This document shows, one piece after another, positions 1 through 30,450 of a DNA stretch of 35,331 bases. Source of the DNA: a virus. Its lineage: Duplodnaviria; Heunggongvirae; Uroviricota; Caudoviricetes. Position numbers and translations under genes: made by a program. Location of the stretch: IMG/VR virus record IMGVR_UViG_2703718813_000007. One strand, given 5' to 3'. A model generated the notes under the pieces. The model searched no databases, was not told the origin of the DNA, and was given only the letters and a program-made list of their open reading frames with translations. Each line of letters opens with the position of its first letter. Positions within the stretch are counted from its first letter, which is position 1.

Positions 1-1293
<1,293 letters not shown>

Positions 1294-1410
1294 TACCCAA
1301 TTTTTCTGAATCTAAAAAGCGCCTGCGGGTGGTTTTGGTGGTGTATTAACATATTGAAAATAAAGATTTTTTATTTTCATGTGCCCAGATAACGTCCATC
1401 TTTGAAACAA

Positions 1411-1450
1411 AAAGCCCGCAGTTTTTACGCTGCGGGCTTTGTTTTTCTTT
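1411..1450. terminator. Rho-independent terminator hairpin, usable in both directions (3' end of hok unit A transcript; possibly also serS)
   Basis: AAAGCCCGCAG (1411-1421) pairs with CTGCGGGCTTT (1430-1440) around an 8-nt loop. An A-run lies upstream and GTTTTTCTTT downstream. Confidence 0.5.
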
Positions 1451-1531
1451 GTGACTTGCGTGTGAGGGTGCTACTTTCGGCCTTACCCTGGCAACCGATT
1501 GACGGGGGATTACTCCCCCGTCGCGGTTTCT

Positions 1532-1672
1532 TTACTGTTTACACTGTAAGAACGCCGCAAACTCCGCTCCCCAGATGTTCATCCGTATTTCACACAGCGA
1601 ACCATGTAACATCCAGATGATGAGGATTGCCGTCACGCAGAACGTGATGGCCATAAGCGATTTTTGCGACAT
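1532..1672 (-). CDS. hok: Hok/Gef-family small membrane toxin, copy A (46 aa)
   Basis: Minus-strand ORF ATG at 1672 to TAA at 1532-1534, translating to MSQKSLMAITFCVTAILIIWMLHGSLCEIRMNIWGAEFAAFLQCKQ. It has an N-terminal hydrophobic helix and the Hok-family SLCEIR ... E.AAF pattern. The upstream sequence AAAGGAG lies about 11 nt before the ATG. Confidence 0.7.
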   Translation of the reverse strand: MSQKSLMAITFCVTAILIIWMLHGSLCEIRMNIWGAEFAAFLQCKQ

Positions 1673-1828
1673 GGCGCTTGCTCCTTTGTTGGAGAGGCGC
1701 TAACCTATCACTTGCTAAAGGTAATGTGGGTTAGGGCCTCGGGTTAAACAATATGTTTGACTCGGGGCCTTTCCACATCCGGCCTTCAGGTATTCCTTCC
1801 AGCCGTCAGCCGAAAGGCACCCGCATGT

Positions 1829-1857
1829 AATTTACTGATTTCCCTTTGTGTGCGCAA
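1829..1857 (-). promoter_or_regulatory. Candidate sigma70 promoter for the hok unit A mRNA (minus strand: -35 TTGCGC, 17 bp spacer, -10 TAAATT)
   Basis: The plus strand carries AATTTA at 1829-1834 and GCGCAA at 1852-1857, exactly 17 bp apart. The same arrangement recurs in unit B (2303-2331) and, with -35 TTGCAC, in unit C (3026-3054). Confidence 0.35.
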
Positions 1858-1890
1858 TGCTCAGTATTGAAGCTGTTGAGGGGAGACGGC

Positions 1891-1916
1891 AAAAAAAAAG
1901 CCCGCATATTGCGGGC
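1891..1916 (-). terminator. Terminator of hok unit B transcript
   Basis: GCCCGCA (1900-1906), loop TAT, TGCGGGC (1910-1916); the plus-strand A9 run at 1891-1899 gives a T-run after the hairpin on the minus strand. Confidence 0.5.
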
Positions 1917-2006
1917 AATGAAGTCAGTACGCTAACCCAAAAGGGTGCCATATCAGCCGAACCCGGCAACCGGATAGCGGGGGGCTTTCACCCCCGCTGC
2001 GGTTTC

Positions 2007-2147
2007 TTACTGTTTACACTGCAAGAACGCCGCAAATTGTGACCACATGATGTTAAGTCTGAACTCACACGGAGAACGGTGTATCATCCAGACGGTCAAC
2101 AACATGGTTAAGCATAAAATGCTCACGATGATCGTTTTTTGCGGCAT
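2007..2147 (-). CDS. hok: Hok/Gef-family small membrane toxin, copy B (46 aa)
   Basis: Minus-strand ORF ATG at 2147 to TAA at 2007-2009, translating to MPQKTIIVSILCLTMLLTVWMIHRSPCEFRLNIMWSQFAAFLQCKQ. AAAAGGAG precedes the ATG. The conserved SLCE is replaced by SPCE here. Confidence 0.65.
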   Translation of the reverse strand: MPQKTIIVSILCLTMLLTVWMIHRSPCEFRLNIMWSQFAAFLQCKQ

Positions 2148-2302
2148 AGCGCTTGACTCCTTTTACAGGGAGGCGCTAACCTTCCACTTGTCACGGTAGG
2201 AAGTGTTAGGGCCTCGGGTTAACATTTAAGTTGACTCGGGGCCTTTCCACATCCGGCCTTCAGGTAATCCTTCCAGCCATCAGCCGAAAGGCACCCGCGT
2301 GT

Positions 2303-2331
2303 AATGTACTGATTTCCCTTTGTGTGCGCAA
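2303..2331 (-). promoter_or_regulatory. Candidate promoter of hok unit B (minus strand: -35 TTGCGC, 17 bp, -10 TACATT)
   Basis: Positional equivalent of the unit A promoter; hexamers read directly from the sequence. Confidence 0.3.
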
Positions 2332-2615
2332 TGCCTGGCGTTGAAGCAGACAACGCTATCGCACTGGTGATATTCTTTCGCACAGGCTTACTCTGTCCTG
2401 TGTCGGGGCGATGAAAATGATTCTTTCAAGAAAAAAATTGAAATTGAGGTTGTGCAAAGTGGAACGGCTGATAATCCTGAGACGGTTACAAAAATAAAGG
2501 TTTCACGCCCGGAAGATCTTGAAGCGTGTGGTGTTATCGTGGAAAAAATTTGTGCTATTCATGCAAAATCAGTTAATACCACTGCCAGTAACGACCACAA
2601 TAAATACAACTGAAC

Positions 2616-2638
2616 AAAAAAGCCCGCATATTGCGGGC
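2616..2638 (-). terminator. Terminator of hok unit C transcript
   Basis: GCCCGCA (2622-2628), loop TAT, TGCGGGC (2632-2638), with a plus-strand A-run at 2616-2621. Confidence 0.5.
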
Positions 2639-2729
2639 AAATACGTCTGTAATCCAATGGAGAAAGGGGTGCCATATCGACCGAACCCGGCAACCGGATA
2701 GCGGGGGCTTTCACCCCCGCTGCGGTTTC

Positions 2730-2870
2730 TTACTGTTTACACTGCAAGAACGCCGCAAATTGTGACCACATGATGTTAAGCCTGAACTCACAGGGTGAGT
2801 TGTGTATCATCCAGACAATCATCAAAATAGTTATGCATAAAATGCTCACTATGATCGTTTTTTGCGGCAT
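2730..2870 (-). CDS. hok: Hok/Gef-family small membrane toxin, copy C (46 aa)
   Basis: Minus-strand ORF ATG at 2870 to TAA at 2730-2732, translating to MPQKTIIVSILCITILMIVWMIHNSPCEFRLNIMWSQFAAFLQCKQ. AAAAGGAG precedes the ATG. Confidence 0.65.
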   Translation of the reverse strand: MPQKTIIVSILCITILMIVWMIHNSPCEFRLNIMWSQFAAFLQCKQ

Positions 2871-3025
2871 AGCGCTTGACTCCTTTTACAGGGAGGCGCT
2901 AACCTTCCACTTGTCTAGGGTAGGAAGGGTTAGGCCTCGGGTTAAACAAATGTTTGACTCGGGGCCTTTCCACATCCGGCCTTCAGGTAATCCTTCCAGC
3001 CGTCAGCCGAAAGGCACCCGCGCGT

Positions 3026-3054
3026 AATTTACCTTTTACGTCCGTTACGTGCAA
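3026..3054 (-). promoter_or_regulatory. Candidate promoter of hok unit C (minus strand: -35 TTGCAC, 17 bp, -10 TAAATT)
   Basis: AATTTA at 3026-3031 and GTGCAA at 3049-3054 on the plus strand; the -35 sits inside a CCGTT-ACGTGC-AACGG palindrome. Confidence 0.3.
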
Positions 3055-3696
3055 CGGATGACGTGGCTGTTTTTCCTTCCCCTTCGCCATCCTTTTTCGG
3101 AGCAGTTGTGCAAAAGTGTGCAAAAGTGATTTTTGCTGCCACTCCCCGCCAGGCCGCGCAAGTTCTGGCTTTCCTGATTTTTTCGTTTTCGTCGTCGGAT
3201 CCTTTTTCAGATCTTCGATCGTGACGTAATTTTAAAAATCTCTTGTTATTCAGTGCATTAAAATTTTTCGGGATCCTCAGAAAGCCGGAGTTTTTGCACA
3301 CTTTTGCAAAACCTTGCACAAAGTGCAAAACCATTCAGAAGGGAAATCCTCAGTAATGGCGCGCCCTGGCGGGGTGTTTTGCACCCCTTTCGATTTGCAA
3401 AATTTATCGTACACAAATACCGGAGGCGTGTGCGGGGTAGCGCCGATTACGTCACTTTACGCGTTACGTCGCCCCCGAAAATTTCCGGCCATTTGCGGCG
3501 ATTTTGGGGCGCAGAAATCGTTTTCTGATGTCAGGGGATCGAATCGGGCTGGCGGGGTTATCTCTTCGTTACGTGGCGTTACGCGACGTTTTACGTGGGG
3601 ATTAAGTGGGGCGTTTCGTCCATCTTTTTTCTGCTGCGGACGGTTTTTTCGTGGTGGGTGATGTCCGGTGATGAATATTTTTTATTGTCCGGGAAT

Positions 3697-3720
3697 AAAA
3701 AAGGCCACATTGCGCGGCCT
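3697..3720 (-). terminator. Weak terminator after the last tail gene
   Basis: On the minus strand, AGGCC, loop GCGCAATGT, GGCCT, then TTTTTT, immediately after the stop codon at 3735-3737. Confidence 0.3.
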
Positions 3721-3734
3721 GTTAAAGTGAATGA

Positions 3735-5408
3735 TTATTCGATTATTGGTGAATATTTATTTTTAAGCTGGCGGCACTCCTGAGCGACCTGGCTGAACTG
3801 TGCGGCCTGCGGAGACGTGCCCGTTTTGGGGTGGGTATGTGATGCCGTAATATCGGCCAGCTCTTCCACCACATCGGCAAGGTCCGTCAGCATGGTCAGT
3901 ACATTAATGCCCTCGTTTCCCAGCTTCACCGTATCGCCAACCAGCTTCTGCGCCAGCGCAATACTGTGACGGACGCCCTTAATCTTTTCGGTAAGGCTGC
4001 CGCCCACGGTGTCCAGTGTGTCGCCTTCCACGTCGCGCTCACAGGTACCGGCAACCACCATCATGTGCCCGCCCGTGCTGATGCTGTAGTTCTCTTCAGT
4101 GATATGGGTGACTGCGCCAGCCTGAAGCGTGGATACGCCCAGGACGGTGGTTGTGTCGGTTGCCTGTATGGTGGTCTCCCGGCTGGTCAGGCTCCGCGTC
4201 TCCTCGTCTGCGCTCACCACGCGCTCGCGTGATGTCTCCTGTATCCGCTGGTCTGTCTGGCGCTCCCAGTCTCCGGCGACCGTCACGCGCTGCGATACGC
4301 CGTCGCGCTGTTGCTGCAACTGCTCGCCCGGCTTCACGTCGGGCAGATTGTGGCCCTCTGCCATTATCTGGCGGATGAAGGGCTTATCCGCCCGGCCTTC
4401 CACAAATCCCACTTCCACCAGGGTTCCGGGTGGCGGGAACTGGAACATGCCGGACTCACTGCCCGCCATGGGTACGGGGAGGGGAACGGCGTTATAAACG
4501 GGCGTATCCGCTGCCGGGTTGCCGTTCTCGTCAAGCAGCTGGAGATTCACCGCGTAGCGGGGTCTGAACGGGTCGGCAATATTGCCCGCGCTGACGGCTT
4601 CGGTCGGCGCCTCAACACGTGCCAGTTTGGGCAGGTGAAGCCCTGATGCCAGTTCAGGGAAGGCCTTTTCAGCCTGGCGACGGAAAGGGGACTTCTGGAG
4701 GGGGGCGCCGGTGGCTTTATTGCGTGGTGTCCACGTGATGGTCATGTTGTCATCTTCCAGCATGACCATCGTCAGGCGCTGACCGTTCACCTCCACACCC
4801 GGTCGCAGCGTCTGAATCATCGGGAGGGTCATACTGTGTCCGCCCGTTGATGCCTGGCTGAACTCGTGCGGGATGGTGACGGGGCGACCGGAAAACATCC
4901 CCTGCGCGGCGGCAGCGGCCATAATGCCGCCGTCCGGTAACGGATGCCAGATGTAGTCCGGTACGGAGAAAATACGCCCCAGACTGGCCAGCAGTTCGTA
5001 GCCCGTGCCGCTGTGCGTGAAATGCGGAACGGGCCTGTCAGTGTAAGCCGCGTTGTCCGGCAGGATGATTTCCAGCCCGCTGGTCTCACTCAGCCACTGT
5101 GTGACCGTGCGCATTGTCGGGTGCTGAAATGAACAGGGGAAGGGGTGATCAAGGATCCCCGCCATTTCACGAATCAGAAGCCGCACCGAGCCGTTTTCAG
5201 CGGGCTGGCTGCGTTCAACGTATCCGGTAAACCAGCGCACCAGGTCGTTTCCGTATCCGATATCGAGACGAACAGGGCGCCCGGTGTAGTTCTGCTCTGT
5301 TCTGGCCGTGATAAATCCGCGTCCGCACGCGTTCAGCTCAAGCATGACGGAACAGCTGACCAGCTGAATGGTGTCGTTACCCAGTAACAGACGTTTAGTG
5401 GGGTTCAT
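3735..5408 (-). CDS. Baseplate hub-spike fusion protein (N-terminal hub region plus C-terminal P2 gpV-like spike with apex motif), 557 aa
   Basis: The segment GTLVEVGFVEGRADKPFI resembles the OB-fold of the P2 gpV family, and the C-terminal ASHTHPKTGTSP resembles the gpV/gp5 apex motif (HTHKHPGDSGGTTGSP in P2 V as I recall it). Last gene of the tail operon. From memory only. Confidence 0.55.
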   Translation of the reverse strand: MNPTKRLLLGNDTIQLVSCSVMLELNACGRGFITARTEQNYTGRPVRLDIGYGNDLVRWFTGYVERSQPAENGSVRLLIREMAGILDHPFPCSFQHPTMRTVTQWLSETSGLEIILPDNAAYTDRPVPHFTHSGTGYELLASLGRIFSVPDYIWHPLPDGGIMAAAAAQGMFSGRPVTIPHEFSQASTGGHSMTLPMIQTLRPGVEVNGQRLTMVMLEDDNMTITWTPRNKATGAPLQKSPFRRQAEKAFPELASGLHLPKLARVEAPTEAVSAGNIADPFRPRYAVNLQLLDENGNPAADTPVYNAVPLPVPMAGSESGMFQFPPPGTLVEVGFVEGRADKPFIRQIMAEGHNLPDVKPGEQLQQQRDGVSQRVTVAGDWERQTDQRIQETSRERVVSADEETRSLTSRETTIQATDTTTVLGVSTLQAGAVTHITEENYSISTGGHMMVVAGTCERDVEGDTLDTVGGSLTEKIKGVRHSIALAQKLVGDTVKLGNEGINVLTMLTDLADVVEELADITASHTHPKTGTSPQAAQFSQVAQECRQLKNKYSPIIE

Positions 5409-5410
5409 GG

Positions 5411-5953
5411 TTACTCCAGCGCATCATTGACGGGTTTGAGGACCTTTTCTTCGAACCAGGTCATTTTCTCCGGTGTTTCGTCGGCCACGGTCCCGCCTTT
5501 TGCGCCGGGCGTCTGCGGCGTCTGTTTACGGCTGCTGCCGGGGGTGGCGCGTGCCTGGCGTTTTTCCGGTACGCTTCGTCTTTCGCGTAATGTGAAGCTG
5601 ACCTGCCAGGCGAGGCGGTCGGTCTGCTGCTGTGCGTCTATCTGCCCGGAAAATGTCCCTTCACGAAAGTTAATGGCGGCAGCGGTGGCGTTTGCGATAC
5701 GGTAAACTTTCAGGGCACCGTCCCCGGTGGTGGCAGAGGCCAGCTGGAAAATGCGCTGAAGGGCCCGCTCATTGTCAAAGGTGATCATCCCGGTTACGCG
5801 AAGCTCTTTGGCCTTGATGCCCTGCTCGGCGTTCGCGGTGCTCGATGTCTGGCCGGACTGGTCCTTTTCCTGGAACTGCATCGAGGGCGAAATCACCATG
5901 TTCTGCATGAAAATACCCTCACCATCAAGGGCGAGCAGTGCGGTCTGGCTCAT
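5411..5953 (-). CDS. Phage tail-associated protein, function unassigned (180 aa; start may be the internal ATG at 5908)
   Basis: ORF in the tail operon between the tail-fibre assembly gene and the hub-spike gene. The track start overlaps the upstream gene by 29 nt, while the internal ATG at 5908 is preceded by GAGGG. Confidence 0.4.
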   Translation of the reverse strand: MSQTALLALDGEGIFMQNMVISPSMQFQEKDQSGQTSSTANAEQGIKAKELRVTGMITFDNERALQRIFQLASATTGDGALKVYRIANATAAAINFREGTFSGQIDAQQQTDRLAWQVSFTLRERRSVPEKRQARATPGSSRKQTPQTPGAKGGTVADETPEKMTWFEEKVLKPVNDALE

Positions 5954-6650
5954 GGATCATTTTCCCCAGTTCGGTTAATGAGTCTGCCGCCAGGAGTGCG
6001 GCCACAGTATGTACGGCGGTCGGTGCCGGGATATCCTTCACCATGGCCGCCGCTGCGGCGCGGTGATACCCCCGGTACTGAAATACCCAGGCCTGCGCCT
6101 TCTGTTCTGCCAGTGTTCTGATCCCCTCTTCCAGTCCGGCAAGTGCGCCAGCCCGTCTGCTGATAAAGCGGCTTATCTGGCGGCGAAGCCCTGCGGCATC
6201 CGGGCGTTGTGCTGCCAGCTGCCTGGCCTGTGCTGCACGGGCGGCACTGACTGCGCTGCGTATTGTGGAAACGGAAAGATGCACAGGTGCGGGCAGGGTG
6301 TCGGTGGTGATCGGGATTTGCATTTTGTCAGTGCTCAGACTGGCGGCAGCCTGTGCCATGCGCTGTGCCTGCGTGAATACCGGCACGGGCAGAACGGTGG
6401 TCAGTGCCGCCATTGACTGTATAAAAAGATCGTGGGTGTTTTCGGCAATCATGATAATGGTCACGTCGCCGGATGCACGGCTTCCGGCCATTTTCCCGGC
6501 CAGCCAGTTTATGGCGTTCGGAGGGCTTAAATATACCCCCGATTCTTCATATCGTCCCAGCCCGTAAGTCCACGGTGTGACGGGGATGACGGAACAGCTC
6601 AGCGGGGGCATGTCAGCGCTGACGCTGATTGTTTTTCTTGTCCACGTCAT
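5925..6650 (-). CDS. Phage tail-associated protein, function unassigned (241 aa, Ala-rich)
   Basis: ATG at 6650 preceded by GGAGG, 11 nt after the stop of the tail-fibre assembly gene. Same strand and operon as the tail genes. No motif recognised. Confidence 0.4.
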   Translation of the reverse strand: MTWTRKTISVSADMPPLSCSVIPVTPWTYGLGRYEESGVYLSPPNAINWLAGKMAGSRASGDVTIIMIAENTHDLFIQSMAALTTVLPVPVFTQAQRMAQAAASLSTDKMQIPITTDTLPAPVHLSVSTIRSAVSAARAAQARQLAAQRPDAAGLRRQISRFISRRAGALAGLEEGIRTLAEQKAQAWVFQYRGYHRAAAAAMVKDIPAPTAVHTVAALLAADSLTELGKMIHEPDRTARP

Positions 6651-6661
6651 GGTGCCTCCGG

Positions 6662-7258
6662 TCAGCCTGCGTGATGATCCGGCGAAGGGGATTCAGGCCA
6701 GACAATATCCGGCGCGTTGCCCGTGTCTGTCCGGTTCAGTAATACCCGGTATTTTTTCCACAGGGGAAGCAGGGCGCTTTCATCGTCGGTCGCCATATTT
6801 AAATCCACGGCATCCTGGAGGATGTTTATTGTATTTGTTGCTTCCTGTATTAATTCCCGTTTTTTGTTCTCCGCCTCGCTCACCCGGTAAGCCTGTTCTG
6901 CTGCTTCATCCTTAACCCATGATGAACCATCCCACCGGCAGAACTCCCCGTCCGGTTTTATTTCTGTCACGTTTTCCGGTAACGGGCCCGGCTCAGTAAT
7001 CAGTAAGGCGCTCCCCGACTCCAGACGCCAGACGGCTTTACCCCGGTGATCTTCCATGAGGTGCCAGGCGTTTTCATCCTCATCAAAGATAGCCACGTGT
7101 CCTTCAGGAATGTCAGGCGGGGCAATGTCCGTTGAGTGCGCAGGCAGTCCGGTATGCGGAGGGATCCAGGCATCGCCTTCGCCGATAAATTCATTTGTTC
7201 CGGCTGACAGGTTGTAGATTTTAATTGTCTGTGGGTGTTCGCTCATTTTAAAGGTCAT
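6662..7258 (-). CDS. Tail fibre assembly chaperone (lambda Tfa-like), 198 aa
   Basis: The N-terminus [48 protein letters not shown] matches the lambda Tfa family start as I recall it. Its ATG overlaps the tail-fibre stop codon. Confidence 0.85.
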
Positions 7259-9318
7259 TATGCAAGCCTCACGATGTAGTTAAATGCGATGTTTTTGACG
7301 GTGTTTTCCGCATTACCGGTGGGGTTAATGGTCAGGCCGTGGCCATGTTGACCCAGTGCGAGCGTGTGGATGTGTTCGCCAATGCTTACCGAATGTGTGT
7401 GTTCCGAAACTCTGGCGATCAGGTTCGCCCCGGAGCCCGGCCCGTATGCGGTCCAGTCACCGCTGCCTTCCGGTGACGCGGTGGCGGTTCTTAATGATAT
7501 TGTTGCGCTGAACGGCCCCGCGCTGTTTGTTGTTTTTGTGCCGTAATTGAAGGATGAGGTCGTTTTTGTGCCAAGGTCAGTATTTGAGACGCTCCCTCCG
7601 TGGGTGTGCGATTTGATGCCGTCCTGCTCCTGTGACAATACCGCACGACCGCTGGCAGGTTTTCCCTTGATTGTCCAGCCACGCATATCCGGGATACGAC
7701 CATCCGGATAGGCTTTTGCCAGCAGGGGATATCGTGCTTTATCGAATGTCTGCCCCACCATGATGGCGTAACCGGCAGGTGGGGTGTCTGACGGCCACGG
7801 CAGGGGAACGCCTGCGGGTAACAACTCACTTGCAGGCAGTGCGCCGATGTCCTGTGGTGTGGGTTTGTTTTTGTCCGTGTAAGTGCGGTACCAGATGGTG
7901 CTTTTCCCTTTATTTAAAACAACCCCGGTGAACTGTGTGCGGAGGTACATGTCGGCAGGGTTTGGGCTTTCGAGACCTGTCGTGATCCTGATGATCCCCC
8001 CGTTGATGTCGCCTGATACTTCGATAAGGCAGCCTCCAAGGCAGATATCACCATAGCCCGTATCAGTGAGCACGCTGTGCCGGGAAAGTGAAATATTGGC
8101 TTTGAATATCCAGAGTCCTGGTCTGAAGGCGCCACGTTCATTCAGCCATTCCACGAATTGTTCTGTTGTCCAGCGTTGCCCTGCTTCACCCACGTACCCG
8201 TCTTTTGCATAAACGCGTGGTGCGCCCACGTTGATCAGGAACAGCTCCTTGTTGGGGATGTCCTCACCATTGCGGTTTTTCGCAAGCCGACCATCGGCGT
8301 TGTCCATGGCGATCTTTATAGCCTTTGGCGTGGCTGCCTGTGTCTCTGATGTACTGGTGGTGGCGCTGCTTAACTGTGTGAAGCCCTTTTCTTTCAGCGT
8401 TGCGTCCGGGTGGTTGCGTGATTTCTCGTGTTTTTTCAGAGCGTCCAGCCAGCGGCGTTCTTCCGGCGTTCCTCTGGGGCGCAGGTCAGTCACGTTGCCG
8501 TCTTCATCAATGTCAGCAAGGGCAAAAAAATATTGCCGGGCGGCCTCCTTCCTGTGTGCTTCCAGCAGGATCTCTTCCGTGGCGGCGGGGTCGGCCATGA
8601 TAATATCGTGCTCCACCGTCCATTCACTGGTGAGCGTACCGGTCCACCATACTGTCAGCCAGATACGGGACGGGAAGTCTGGCGTGGTCAGCGGTATGTC
8701 TTCGGTCAGCTCTGCGCGTAATCCCTCCACGTAACCGGTCCCTTTGCAGAGTGACCATCTTTCGCCTTTTTTAACCAGCCAGCCGTCCCCAAAGAATGCA
8801 GCGTTACCGTAAATATCGATGTTTTCCCGGCGCTGGCGCTCGTCCATGGCCGCCAGACGTGCCGTGAAGTCTATCTGCCAGGTCTGCGCCGGGGTGGTGA
8901 TACCTGTGGCTTCCTTCGCACCGCTGTACTCCATGAGCATGGAACGGACCAGCACATTACCTTCGTTACCGTTGTGGGTTCTGATTTTTTTCTGTGTGGG
9001 GGCGTGAACAATCATGGCCAGCGTGCTGGTTGCTTTGCTGACCAGTCCCACCCAGTTAAATTCAAAATCACCCAGCTCTGCCCCCAGGGTGACCGAATAA
9101 ACCACGGCATTCTCATTCACCACGCCGGTTTTGCCAACGGCCTGGCGGTGAACAATCTGATCTTCAGGCGGCAGGGTTTCGTCGGGGGATACCGGTGTTT
9201 CCGGGTTGAGGTCCGGGACGTTTGCAAAAACAAACTCATCCAGCACAACGGGGGTGCCTTCCGCCGCCTGCTGTGCCTTGAGCCGGATAAAGGCGCTGGT
9301 AATTACAGATTTCGCCAT
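7258..9318 (-). CDS. Tail fibre protein, 686 aa
   Basis: Contains the tail-fibre shaft motif [33 protein letters not shown] (shared with the P2 H family) and a C-terminal receptor-binding region ending [24 protein letters not shown], as in lambda Stf-type fibres. AAGGAG precedes the ATG at 9318. Confidence 0.85.
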
Positions 9319-30128: not shown

Positions 30129-30450
30129 GGTGTGGCCTCTTTGCTAGTAAGTTCTGAAAACTCACCAACCTGAGGCGGTAATCTCAGGGTGGCGAGACGT
30201 ACGGGGTTACCACAACCGGCTAGCAAAGAATCCGGCCCGACCGAAGTCGGCCCCGTACGCCCCGCCATAATTCGTGTGCGAAAAAGACGTGGCGATACAG
30301 TACGCACAAAAAAACCGCTGGCGCGGCTGTGCGCTTTGCTAGTCGGCGGGGTGGTAATCCCGGCACCCGTTTTATGAGGTGCAGCGGGAATGTAACCTGA
30401 CTGATTGCGGCATGGCAAGCGGTTTTTTTGTGTGTGCATGTTCTGGTTTC

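Follow-up and report, generated by a model that had tools for sequence, protein, structure and literature searches.

Hok homologs grouped into islets, i.e. 2–6 hok within 2 kb, have been catalogued and show enrichment in prophages (Escalera-Maurer et al., bioRxiv 10.1101/2025.08.07.668861). Such islets hold 10% of the catalogued homologs and 13.5% of Escherichia chromosomal hok genes, and according to the same preprint 0.2% of hok-carrying phages encode three hok. The hok loci of E. coli K-12 are single and mostly disrupted, with IS150 at hokA and IS186 adjoining hokC, and the lambdoid Stx2 prophage Sp5 has hokW-sokW only once. The hokW-sokW locus is a precedent for benefit to the phage, as lysis came earlier after induction and progeny increased twofold (Takada et al. 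2021, PMC8621323).

The DNA analyzed here, referred to as the window, is the whole 35,331-nucleotide stretch of IMG/VR record IMGVR_UViG_2703718813_000007. A preliminary description of this stretch had implied that hok loci in tandem lack precedent, which is wrong given the catalogued islets of 2–6. The reading that we prefer, with a probability of roughly four in five, is that three independent hok/sok-type type I modules make up accessory cargo (morons) at the att end of a ~34 kb P2-like prophage in the E. coli serS terminator.

Results

The layout given in the preliminary description was recovered, with three tandem units on the minus strand, each having a terminator, a 46-codon ORF, a leader of ~150 nt and a promoter-like site at fixed spacing (Table 1). 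The extent it assigned, 1402–3030, holds most of the array, but the array spans approximately 1404–3054 and thus runs slightly past 3030. A 243-nt block is present three times, at 1505, 1980 and 2703, as is a 132-nt block, at 1742, 2216 and 2939. Start-to-start spacing of the units is ~475 and 723 nt, a period that is not uniform because an extra ~270 bp (2345–2612) sits between units B and C. In one 99%-identical strain, RefSeq has a 67-aa hypothetical protein in this spacer. A 53-aa ORF of the spacer weakly matches the C-terminal region of phrog_14142 (E 8.4e-4), suggesting that the spacer is a gene remnant.

Table 1. Positions of features at the array in the window; RNAs and promoter-like sites are predicted.
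Feature	Coordinates	Strand	Details
att core CCTGCGGG, in serS terminator	1322..1329	.	window vs K-12 comparison
hok mRNA A, ~419 nt	1404..1822	-	tac 1822-1807, fbi arm 1482-1466, bidirectional terminator 1440-1411
hok A, 46 aa MSQKSLMAITFCVTAILIIWMLHGSLCEIRMNIWGAEFAAFLQCKQ	1532..1672	-	SD AAGGAG 1686-1681; Pfam HOK_GEF 30.3 bits; PHROG 251 E 8.6e-23; RefSeq WP_000078909.1
Promoter-like site Sok A, TTGCTC-17-TAACCT	1678..1706	+	-35 overlaps hok SD region; K-12 sokC promoter position
Sok A, ~60 nt	1713..1772	+	20-nt single-stranded 5' tail, 18-bp hairpin and UUU; fold -27.0 kcal/mol; ends to about +/-3 nt
Promoter-like site hok A, TTGCGC-17-TAAATT	1829..1857	-	ends 6 nt upstream of predicted 5' end
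hok mRNA B, ~405 nt	1892..2296	-	tac 2296-2281, fbi arm 1959-1943, terminator 1916-1900
hok B, 46 aa MPQKTIIVSILCLTMLLTVWMIHRSPCEFRLNIMWSQFAAFLQCKQ	2007..2147	-	SD AAGGAG 2162-2157; Pfam HOK_GEF 22.9 bits; PHROG 251 E 2.6e-18; RefSeq WP_062857801.1
Promoter-like site Sok B, TTGACT-18-TAACCT	2153..2182	+	predicted
Sok B, ~58 nt	2189..2246	+	fold -27.8 kcal/mol
Promoter-like site hok B, TTGCGC-17-TACATT	2303..2331	-	fixed spacing
B-C spacer, absent between A and B	2345..2612	+	broken ORFs 2411..2497 and 2452..2613
hok mRNA C, ~406 nt	2614..3019	-	tac 3019-3004, fbi arm 2683-2667, terminator 2638-2622
hok C, 46 aa MPQKTIIVSILCITILMIVWMIHNSPCEFRLNIMWSQFAAFLQCKQ	2730..2870	-	SD AAGGAG 2885-2880; Pfam HOK_GEF 24.6 bits; RefSeq WP_033805534.1
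Promoter-like site Sok C, TTGACT-18-TAACCT	2876..2905	+	predicted
Sok C, ~58 nt	2912..2969	+	fold -26.1 kcal/mol
Promoter-like site hok C, TTGCAC-17-TAAATT	3026..3054	-	fixed spacing

The three peptides are members of the Hok family, as had been proposed from the ORFs. All exceed the gathering cut-off of 22 bits in a profile search with PF01848 (HOK_GEF), B barely so, and all match PHROG 251 ("MokW-like host killing", category moron) and are annotated in RefSeq as Hok/Gef family protein. Each was scored as a ~50-aa peptide with a basic N-terminus and one hydrophobic helix and at the Hok logo positions M1, C16, T18, L30, C31, E32 and E41, of which copy A has 7/7 and B and C have 5/7, with proline for leucine before Cys-Glu and glutamine for glutamate. 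The SPCEF motif of B and C is also found in a representative toxin, 82_1289, that was among the constructs of the islet preprint. Copy A is diverged from B and C, at 52% protein identity and 67–68% identity of CDS DNA, as the preliminary description had noticed; the CDS of B and C are 91% identical to each other. The nearest preprint sequences to copy A are from cluster 72, namely 72_1589 and 72_1621 (93% identical, as found in locus L096 by tblastn), and the nearest to B and C is 82_1289 from cluster 82 (78% and 69% identical, respectively, over residues 1–45, as found in locus L094). All three were among the sequences tested there, representatives of both clusters were toxic, and only three other sequences were non-toxic (bioRxiv 10.1101/2025.08.07.668861). 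By analogy, the exact copies in the array would be toxic as well.

The ORFs are also conserved. The preliminary description had staked its reading on their being maintained in related genomes, and an intact 46-codon ORF is kept in 98 of 103 homologous loci, with pN/pS of 0.21 and 0.34 within the two Hok clusters and, between B and C, pS of 0.278 and pN of 0.053. Judged from these sequence comparisons, the peptides are under purifying selection. In locus L097, a neighboring relative, the unit at 3207 has lost its start codon (ATA).

Patterns of similarity among the units bear on how the array came about. The term "triplicated" in the preliminary description overstates their common origin, as A is of another 60%-identity Hok cluster than B/C and a gene remnant intervenes between B and C. 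A simple triplication in situ, in which a single ancestral hok unit underwent two local duplications before the copies diverged, could be expected from the catalogue, where 98% of islets consist of a single 60%-identity cluster and local duplication is favored (bioRxiv 10.1101/2025.08.07.668861). It would also suit the similarity of the B and C CDS and the arrangement in strain N51, which combines A with two identical copies of B type at an exact 473-bp period, i.e. a clean duplication. This explanation is nevertheless unlikely for the array as a whole, in view of the low protein identity of A with B and C, their differently numbered nearest tested relatives (72 vs 82), and the gene remnant between B and C. 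Moreover, the 3' end and terminator of A match att-proximal sequence of other serS-integrating prophages while the terminator common to B and C is another one, and B, remnant and C are found without A at another site in the same phage type. A mosaic origin, with A belonging to the att module and B/C representing an older duplicated pair, fits these sequence patterns better than simple triplication.

The hok mRNAs are predicted to begin with GGGUGCC at 1822, 2296 and 3019, 149–150 nt ahead of the ATG, and in all pairs of units the leaders are 96–98% identical over their first 53 nt. The Rfam model RF01794 ("sok", CssrC) aligns co-linearly with hok from exactly these three positions (E 3e-10 to 1e-6), although with scores of 52.4, 40 and 39.2, below the gathering score of 59 bits. 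As a position for Sok these matches were rejected, being sub-gathering and on the hok-mRNA (minus) strand; as model matches they confirm leader homology and the predicted 5' ends only. As had been described, unit C has a different -35 element; the change is a single base, and the sequence context upstream is entirely different. A strict sigma-70 consensus scan of 1290–3740 listed none of the proposed hok or Sok promoters, the hok -35 and the Sok -10 TAACCT each matching consensus at 3/6 positions. Promoters were instead positioned from their fixed geometry and their homology with K-12 sokC; they remain predictions.

A plus-strand Sok-like RNA opposite the leader, which the preliminary description had expected, is now predicted at three sites by homology to annotated K-12 sokC. 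The hairpin GGCCUCGGG...CUCGGGGCC followed by UUU, and a TTGAC -35 over the hok Shine-Dalgarno sequence (SD), occupy the same positions as in sokC, and the Sok -10 is nearly invariant across 17 loci. Each unit thus has a candidate cis-antisense RNA of ~60 nt with promoter-like site, 5' tail and terminator hairpin. The predicted start of these RNAs lies ~40 nt ahead of the hok ATG and ~25 nt past the SD; those of units A and C cover no start codon.

In the minimum free energy folds of A and C, the 15 nt at the 5' end are paired with a segment upstream of the terminator (in A, nt 1–15 with 1466–1482), consistent with a tac/fbi fold-back just upstream of the terminator; in unit B the fold-back is an available alternative that was worked out by hand. 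Across 17 diverse loci the fold-back cells are paired in 86.8%, the four tested helices in 86.5% vs 34–47% with slid partners, and the hairpin of SD and anti-SD in 98–100%. Covariation analysis of the leader, as had been suggested earlier, thus found pairing to be conserved over the 17 loci but covariation to be weak, with 2/16 fold-back pairs changed on both sides; support of this kind is thin because the pairs are mostly invariant. Power was limited as well, because a scan of GTDB species representatives gave 6 loci only, three of them apparent contaminant contigs in non-enteric assemblies. On the 17 loci RNAalifold picks a local 5' hairpin over the fold-back, which we read as the alternative (activated) conformation. 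Truncated mRNA is predicted to refold as in R1, with the SD still largely paired, and the target hairpin is retained in 16/17 loci (z -3.4 to -5.4) with differing upper-stem sequences.

No conserved mok frame was found when all three frames were searched in 17 loci, and units A and C lack any ATG, GTG or TTG frame that runs from the leader to the hok SD or start. Unit B has a 23-codon GTG frame that is not common to its relatives, and long frame-2 ORFs are present in some relatives only. In the canonical locus, hok is translated only if an overlapping mok frame is, and mok is what Sok targets directly. For lack of a conserved mok frame the units are filed as hok/sok-type and not as canonical three-gene hok/mok/sok.

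The weak promoter matches, the missing mok frame, the sub-gathering Rfam scores, the start codon lost in L097, and the two deviations of B and C among the seven best-conserved positions of Hok could all be expected if the units were decayed relics, inactive like most K-12 chromosomal hok loci, with little or no transcription or with non-toxic peptides. We regard this as quite improbable, however, as the three ORFs are intact and of equal length, the leader start is nearly identical among units, no damage is seen in the SD, the fold-back or the Sok hairpin, and the peptide is under purifying selection. Additionally, toxicity was seen with the tested representative that shares the SPCEF motif, and single alanine substitutions at conserved positions of Hok left it toxic (bioRxiv 10.1101/2025.08.07.668861).

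The preliminary description had put the array between serS and the prophage. Rather, the inserted element contains the array, directly after the att core. Homology to the empty K-12 serS-dmsA spacer stops at 1329/1330 and sequence to the right is inserted prophage; the empty K-12 site is contiguous across the 8-bp core, and the window diverges at 1330, 70 bp ahead of the unit A terminator. Because the window stops at the integrase stop codon, the right junction was read in NZ_AP045170.1, from a strain 99.9% identical to the window, where the same 8-bp core lies by integrase and dmsA and K-12 sequence then resumes. Between the two core copies are genes for P2-family capsid, terminase, GPO scaffold, gpM, portal, Ogr, Cox and integrase, so that the locus lies within a P2-like (Peduoviridae-type) prophage, and since homology to K-12 is lost within the serS terminator, the array belongs to the cargo of the prophage, at its att-proximal end. 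Related prophages at serS have one hok adjoining att and ogr. Many of the 80 IMG/VR prophage loci listed end exactly at the hok gene, at the contig end, which weakened the scan of that collection for arrays. That the hok copies are instead E. coli core or island DNA, a host chromosomal array between serS and an adjacent prophage, is very improbable: a non-coding stretch of 704 bp (3031–3734) without a match in the phage isolate collection does part the array from the first phage structural gene (3735..5408), but the departure from K-12 precedes unit A, K-12 sequence resumes only past the integrase, a search of 1330–7810 for a further att core copy, as a sign of two successive insertions, found none between the array and the phage genes, and the B-remnant-C pair lies at the same end of the same phage type at the ytfP region.

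Discussion

With the array taken as prophage cargo, a mode of action may be proposed by analogy with R1 hok/sok and Sp5 hokW/sokW. We infer that the hok loci are expressed, each unit giving a stable minus-strand mRNA of ~405–420 nt for a 46-aa single-pass membrane toxin and a plus-strand Sok of ~58–60 nt from a promoter overlapping the hok ribosome-binding region. The full-length mRNA would be held in a locked state in which its 5' end GGGUGCCUUUCGGCUG is paired with the 3' segment just upstream of the terminator, with the hok SD additionally sequestered in a local hairpin. Slow 3' trimming would remove the 3' partner, after which the 5' end would pair anew with a nearby element, and the resulting "target hairpin" would display the patch complementary to Sok. 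As long as Sok is synthesized it would bind the target hairpin and the duplex would be destroyed (RNase III); were its synthesis halted, through prophage loss or induction or shut-off by an infecting phage, toxin would be translated and the inner membrane damaged. The canonical coupling mechanism cannot be assumed because a conserved mok frame is absent, and since hok also has a strong AAGGAG of its own, control is probably through mRNA structure and Sok-triggered decay rather than translational coupling. Action of Sok at the array is likewise drawn from the analogy, as is its biological role: the likely pay-off to the phage would be prophage retention, competitor exclusion and/or help with lysis, with benefit to a phage documented for other systems (Takada et al. 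2021, PMC8621323).

There was only one strongly divergent non-coding patch in the leaders, comprising the ~25-nt Sok recognition tail and its target, with 50–61% identity. Between B and C this patch is divergent while its flanks are 98–100% identical. Predicted tail-target duplexes have -35 to -40 kcal/mol for cognate pairs vs -11 to -24 for non-cognate pairs. It is conceivable, if somewhat doubtful, that the three modules are "orthogonal", i.e. stacked addiction modules without cross-neutralization, independent of mok and evading the Sok of resident hok loci. Alternatively, the Sok-tail patch may be one unconstrained stretch, since the antisense is cis-encoded, and may drift at a roughly synonymous rate; between B and C it is ~41% different vs a pS of 0.28. 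If orthogonality were true, the array would be a worked example of cis-antisense toxin-antitoxin paralogs avoiding cross-talk, and a whole Hok subfamily would operate without Mok, which would be of interest to the type I field and leave the general picture unchanged. Apart from this, the analysis has value as clean-up, in that the ORFs are correctly Hok/Gef and already annotated as such, the array is the prophage's and not the host's, and coordinates can be assigned to the predicted Sok RNAs; for this stretch the RefSeq feature tables of two carrier strains show the three Hok/Gef CDS only.

The array shares with hok/mok/sok of R1 a small Hok/Gef membrane toxin, a long structured leader, and a tac/fbi fold-back of 5' to 3' end just upstream of the terminator hairpin. 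Also in common are a ~60-nt cis-antisense from within the leader, with a single-stranded 5' tail and a hairpin, and a target hairpin predicted upon refolding after 3' trimming. In contrast, the R1 toxin has 52 aa vs 46 aa in the array, R1 is a plasmid while the array is on a prophage, and R1 has an overlapping mok whereas the array lacks a conserved mok frame. Unlike in R1, hok of the array has its own AAGGAG 8–9 nt from the ATG, and the predicted Sok starts beyond the SD and, in A and C, off any start codon. The nearest named protein is K-12 HokA, with 41% identity to copy A and the common pattern MPQK...WMI...CE...AAFL.CK, and the K-12 sokC hairpin, as well as the -35 that overlaps the hok SD, is homologous to the array in position and sequence. 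In K-12, however, mokC extends hokC in frame at its N-terminus, whereas the array has an in-frame stop 6–10 codons upstream of the ATG. Stx-phage matches labelled "MokW-like" had raised the possibility that the array is of hokW type, which was dropped because the primer sequences place hokW as HokC/D-type (Takada et al. 2021, PMC8621323); HokW is a 51-aa protein (MKQQKAM...) and differs from the 46-aa type of the array. Head-to-tail units of toxin and antisense in one intergenic region are also seen in ldr/rdl, ibs/sib and zorO-orzO/zorP-orzP, but these are other toxin families and chromosomal core loci rather than phage cargo. Each of the Sib and OrzO sRNAs discriminates its own mRNA by means of a few variable positions. 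With respect to hok islets, the array appears to mix two clusters, as do 2% of islets, and the Sok, mok and mRNA elements left unanalyzed in the preprint (bioRxiv 10.1101/2025.08.07.668861) were worked out here for these units. The array is an uncommon instance of a known phenomenon in a known family.

The hok units and their family

Downstream of serS, a repeat search found a 243-nt block and a 132-nt block, each present three times, with start-to-start distances of about 475 and 723 nt, and the three repeat units A, B and C can be aligned over about 420 nt (see table). The preliminary description had read them as carrying three Hok-family type I toxin ORFs, and the observation is real and the reading right because three lines of annotation agree: all three peptides (3/3) exceed the Pfam HOK_GEF gathering score of 22 bits in the profile check which that description had proposed, PHROG 251 ("MokW-like host killing", category moron) is matched by A (E 8.6e-23) and B (E 2.6e-18), and RefSeq labels three "Hok/Gef family protein" genes (WP_000078909.1, WP_062857801.1, WP_033805534.1) in a 99.9% identical stretch of JNEC-KY174, the host of the window being E. 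coli. Maintenance of the ORFs in relatives, on which the reading had also been made to depend, is borne out by an intact 46-codon frame in 98 of the 103 related loci collected and by pN/pS values of 0.21 among 36 distinct A-type CDS and 0.34 among 8 of B-type; the comparison of B with C gave a pS of 0.278 and a pN of 0.053. Among 32,532 Hok loci catalogued by Escalera-Maurer et al. (2026 preprint, 10.1101/2025.08.07.668861), 45 representatives were tested and 42 were toxic. The construct list in the supplementary file includes 72_1621 and 72_1589, which are A-type, and 82_1289, which is B/C-type and has the SPCEF motif in common with B and C; the three non-toxic sequences include none of these (10.1101/2025.08.07.668861).

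Features of the hok array and of the prophage early region, with window coordinates
Feature	Coordinates	Strand	Detail
serS	1..1293	+	start of window
hok A ORF	1532..1672	-	46 codons; HOK_GEF 30.3 bits
hok B ORF	2007..2147	-	46 codons; HOK_GEF 22.9 bits
hok C ORF	2730..2870	-	46 codons; HOK_GEF 24.6 bits
hok A promoter-like site		-	TTGCGC-17-TAAATT; fixed spacing
hok B promoter-like site		-	TTGCGC-17-TACATT; fixed spacing
hok C promoter-like site		-	TTGCAC-17-TAAATT; fixed spacing
Predicted mRNA 5' ends (GGGUGCC)	A 1822, B 2296, C 3019	-	Rfam RF01794 alignment start and promoter geometry
Terminators	A 1440-1411, B 1916-1900, C 2638-2622	-	
Sok A promoter-like site	1678-1706	+	TTGCTC-17-TAACCT
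Predicted Sok A RNA	~1713-1772	+	60 nt; homology to sokC
Sok B promoter-like site	2153-2182	+	TTGACT-18-TAACCT
Predicted Sok B RNA	~2189-2246	+	58 nt; homology to sokC
Sok C promoter-like site	2876-2905	+	TTGACT-18-TAACCT
Predicted Sok C RNA	~2912-2969	+	58 nt; homology to sokC
C4 antisense RNA (RF01695)	30185-30272	-	82.6 bits, above gathering; prophage early region
isrK (RF01394)	30308-30382	-	62 bits, above gathering; adjoins C4 match

Position relative to the attachment site

The array had been placed between serS and the prophage, which is wrong. The empty K-12 serS-dmsA spacer matches the window only as far as ...AAAAAGCGCCTGCGGG (1329), the end of the 8-bp attachment-site core, and departs from 1330; the K-12 continuation (CGCTTTTTTTGTCTCCC...) does not reappear in JNEC-KY174 until past the phage integrase beside dmsA, right after the same CCTGCGGG. 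The stretch bounded by the two cores contains P2-family capsid, scaffold, terminase, portal, Ogr, Cox, repressor and integrase genes, and a search of the interval from the array to the tail genes turned up no extra core copy. The K-12 break, the second core beyond the integrase and the lack of an intervening core place the array within the att-proximal end of the integrated element, and it should be expected to travel with the phage. Consistent with this location, a single hok lies between att and ogr in other serS-integrated P2-like prophages, the same phage type near ytfP has the B-remnant-C pair at the same end, and, of the 80 IMG/VR prophage loci retrieved, many end right at the hok gene.

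In the region 1313-1345 integration has split the serS terminator hairpin, which the phage-side GGGTGGTTTTGG restores only weakly. Unit A carries a strong bidirectional terminator (1411-1440), and because it is called in the plus-strand direction too, serS transcripts probably now end there.

Predicted hok mRNA and Sok RNA

In every unit GGGUGCC begins 6 nt past the end of the hok promoter-like site, exactly where the RF01794 alignments start (1684-1822, 2136-2296 and 2859-3019, minus strand; A 52.4, B 40 and C 39.2 bits, all below the family gathering score of 59). These matches are co-linear with the hok mRNA leader and end at the hok start codon; since they lie on the minus strand, the RF01794 "sok antitoxin (CssrC)" model describes the sense leader and not the antisense RNA, at least for these three units. 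The leader is 149-150 nt long. AAGGAG sits 8-9 nt 5' of each hok ATG, and a predicted hairpin in which it pairs with a CUCC further upstream is maintained at 98-100% in 17 loci. Past the hok stop come a G+C hairpin, a segment able to base-pair with the 5' end (CGGUCGAUAUGGCACCC with GGGUGCCUUUCGGCUG, for example) and the terminator. The first 15 nt pair with this 3' segment in minimum free energy folds of full-length A and C RNAs, and a hand check found the same pairing possible in B. In a set of 17 diverse loci the fold-back cells were paired in 86.8% of cases, and those of the whole tested structure in 86.5%, versus 34-47% in slid controls; fold-back covariation was weak because most of these pairs are invariant. 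Removal of the 3' arm is predicted to let the 5' end re-pair with GGAAAGGCCCC and the downstream leader fold into a long hairpin. This hairpin is kept in 16 of the 17 loci, at z -3.4 to -5.4, although its upper-stem sequences differ. The 5' and 3' fold-back arms (tac and fbi), refolding and target hairpin are established for R1 hok mRNA, and the modelled folds suggest that units A, B and C have this logic in common with it.

Canonical R1 architecture differs in having mok. An in-frame stop lies 6-10 codons upstream of every hok ATG, none of the frames of A or C holds a leader ORF that extends to the hok start, the B leader has only a non-conserved 23-codon GTG frame, and long overlapping leader frames occur in only some relatives; for lack of a conserved frame reaching hok, the units are better called hok/sok-type. 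Control is probably through mRNA structure and Sok-triggered decay; RNase III dependence has been shown only for hokW/sokW of the Stx2 prophage Sp5 (Takada et al. 2021, PMC8621323).

Annotated K-12 sokC (59 nt, opposite the hokC leader) has a hairpin, GGCCUCGGGUUGAU...AUCACUCGGGGCU followed by UUU, and a TTGACC -35 overlapping the hokC SD, and both have direct counterparts in A, B and C. Each predicted Sok starts with an open 5' tail of 20 nt, followed by a hairpin of 16-18 bp and UUU, and its -10 is almost invariant across 17 loci. A generic promoter scan did not list the Sok promoter-like sites, so Sok transcription stays a prediction.

Any two of the leaders are 96-98% identical over their first 53 nt, and B and C are 100% identical from the Sok -10 to the ATG, yet the Sok-tail target of about 25 nt shows only 50-61% identity, B versus C included. 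Predicted tail-target duplexes reach -35 to -40 kcal/mol for cognate pairs, compared with -11 to -18 for A versus B/C and -24 for B versus C, which fits insulated antitoxin specificities. Alternatively, the patch may simply be unconstrained because the antisense is cis-encoded and the patch may drift freely, and its divergence between B and C (about 41%) is not clearly above a pS of 0.28.

Origin and variability of the array

That the array is a triplication holds for the number of units and not for a clean origin. At the protein level A shares 52% identity with B and C, and the closest tested relatives in the preprint carry cluster number 72 for A and 82 for B and C. Sequence matching the 3' end and terminator of A lies next to att in other serS prophages; the terminator common to B and C is a different one, and their 270-bp spacer holds broken ORFs weakly matching the C-terminus of phrog_14142. 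In strain N51, A is accompanied by two identical B-type copies with a 473-bp period, and E. coli F1022 (L097, NZ_OY754357.1) has, at the same serS prophage end, two hok units about 2 kb apart, one start-codon-dead and one live, showing unit gain, loss and decay at this slot. Together the divergence, terminators, spacer remnant and these arrangements argue against a clean triplication. Of 5,426 complete E. coli genomes, no more than about 8 have 80% or more of the array and about 20 have an A-B-like junction; unit-B-like DNA, by contrast, is present in 725 genomes, with a median of two sites.

Within the spacer, 2411-2613 (plus strand) holds two short overlapping ORFs (28 and 53 aa), their weak match covering the C-terminal third of phrog_14142, and at this position a 99%-identical strain has a single annotated 67-aa hypothetical protein; the pair of ORFs looks like a frameshifted remnant. 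In F1022 the unit at 3073-3207 has an ATA start codon, is unannotated and presumably dead, and the hok at 5075-5212, before ogr, is intact and A-type. Near-identical enterobacterial hok in assemblies labelled Xanthomonas pisi, Planococcaceae MAG and Vagococcus sp. (L088, L090, L091), on short contigs or inside otherwise unrelated assemblies, most likely reflects contamination rather than true hosts.

Other prophage features

Between unit C and the first tail/baseplate gene, about 700 bp (3031-3734) contain no convincing gene; RefSeq calls a minus-strand hypothetical protein of about 100 aa in relatives. Short repeats are dense there: direct and inverted TGCAAAAG/CTTTTGCA (3105-3130, 3289-3322, 3377-3407) and TTACG(T/C) motifs (3028-3060, 3446-3470, 3569-3596), all of which may be protein-binding sites. 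A search of the phage isolate collection, distant blastn included, gave zero matches. The C4 and isrK matches, with a "derepression protein" gene annotated in the JNEC-KY174 early region, suggest a P1/P4-style antisense immunity or anti-repressor switch.

Comparison with known systems

The family is textbook and the genes, already labelled by RefSeq and PHROGs, are already known; what is gained is a corrected location and explicit coordinates for Sok and hok mRNA. In the preprint, 10% of Hok homologs, and 13.5% of chromosomal hok genes in Escherichia, lie in islets of 2-6, hok is fourfold enriched in prophages, three hok occur in 0.2% of hok-carrying phages, and mixed-cluster islets are 2% of islets (10.1101/2025.08.07.668861). 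Against this background the array is slightly unusual, as an islet that appears to mix two clusters, in the att-adjacent cargo slot of a P2-like phage and with no mok.
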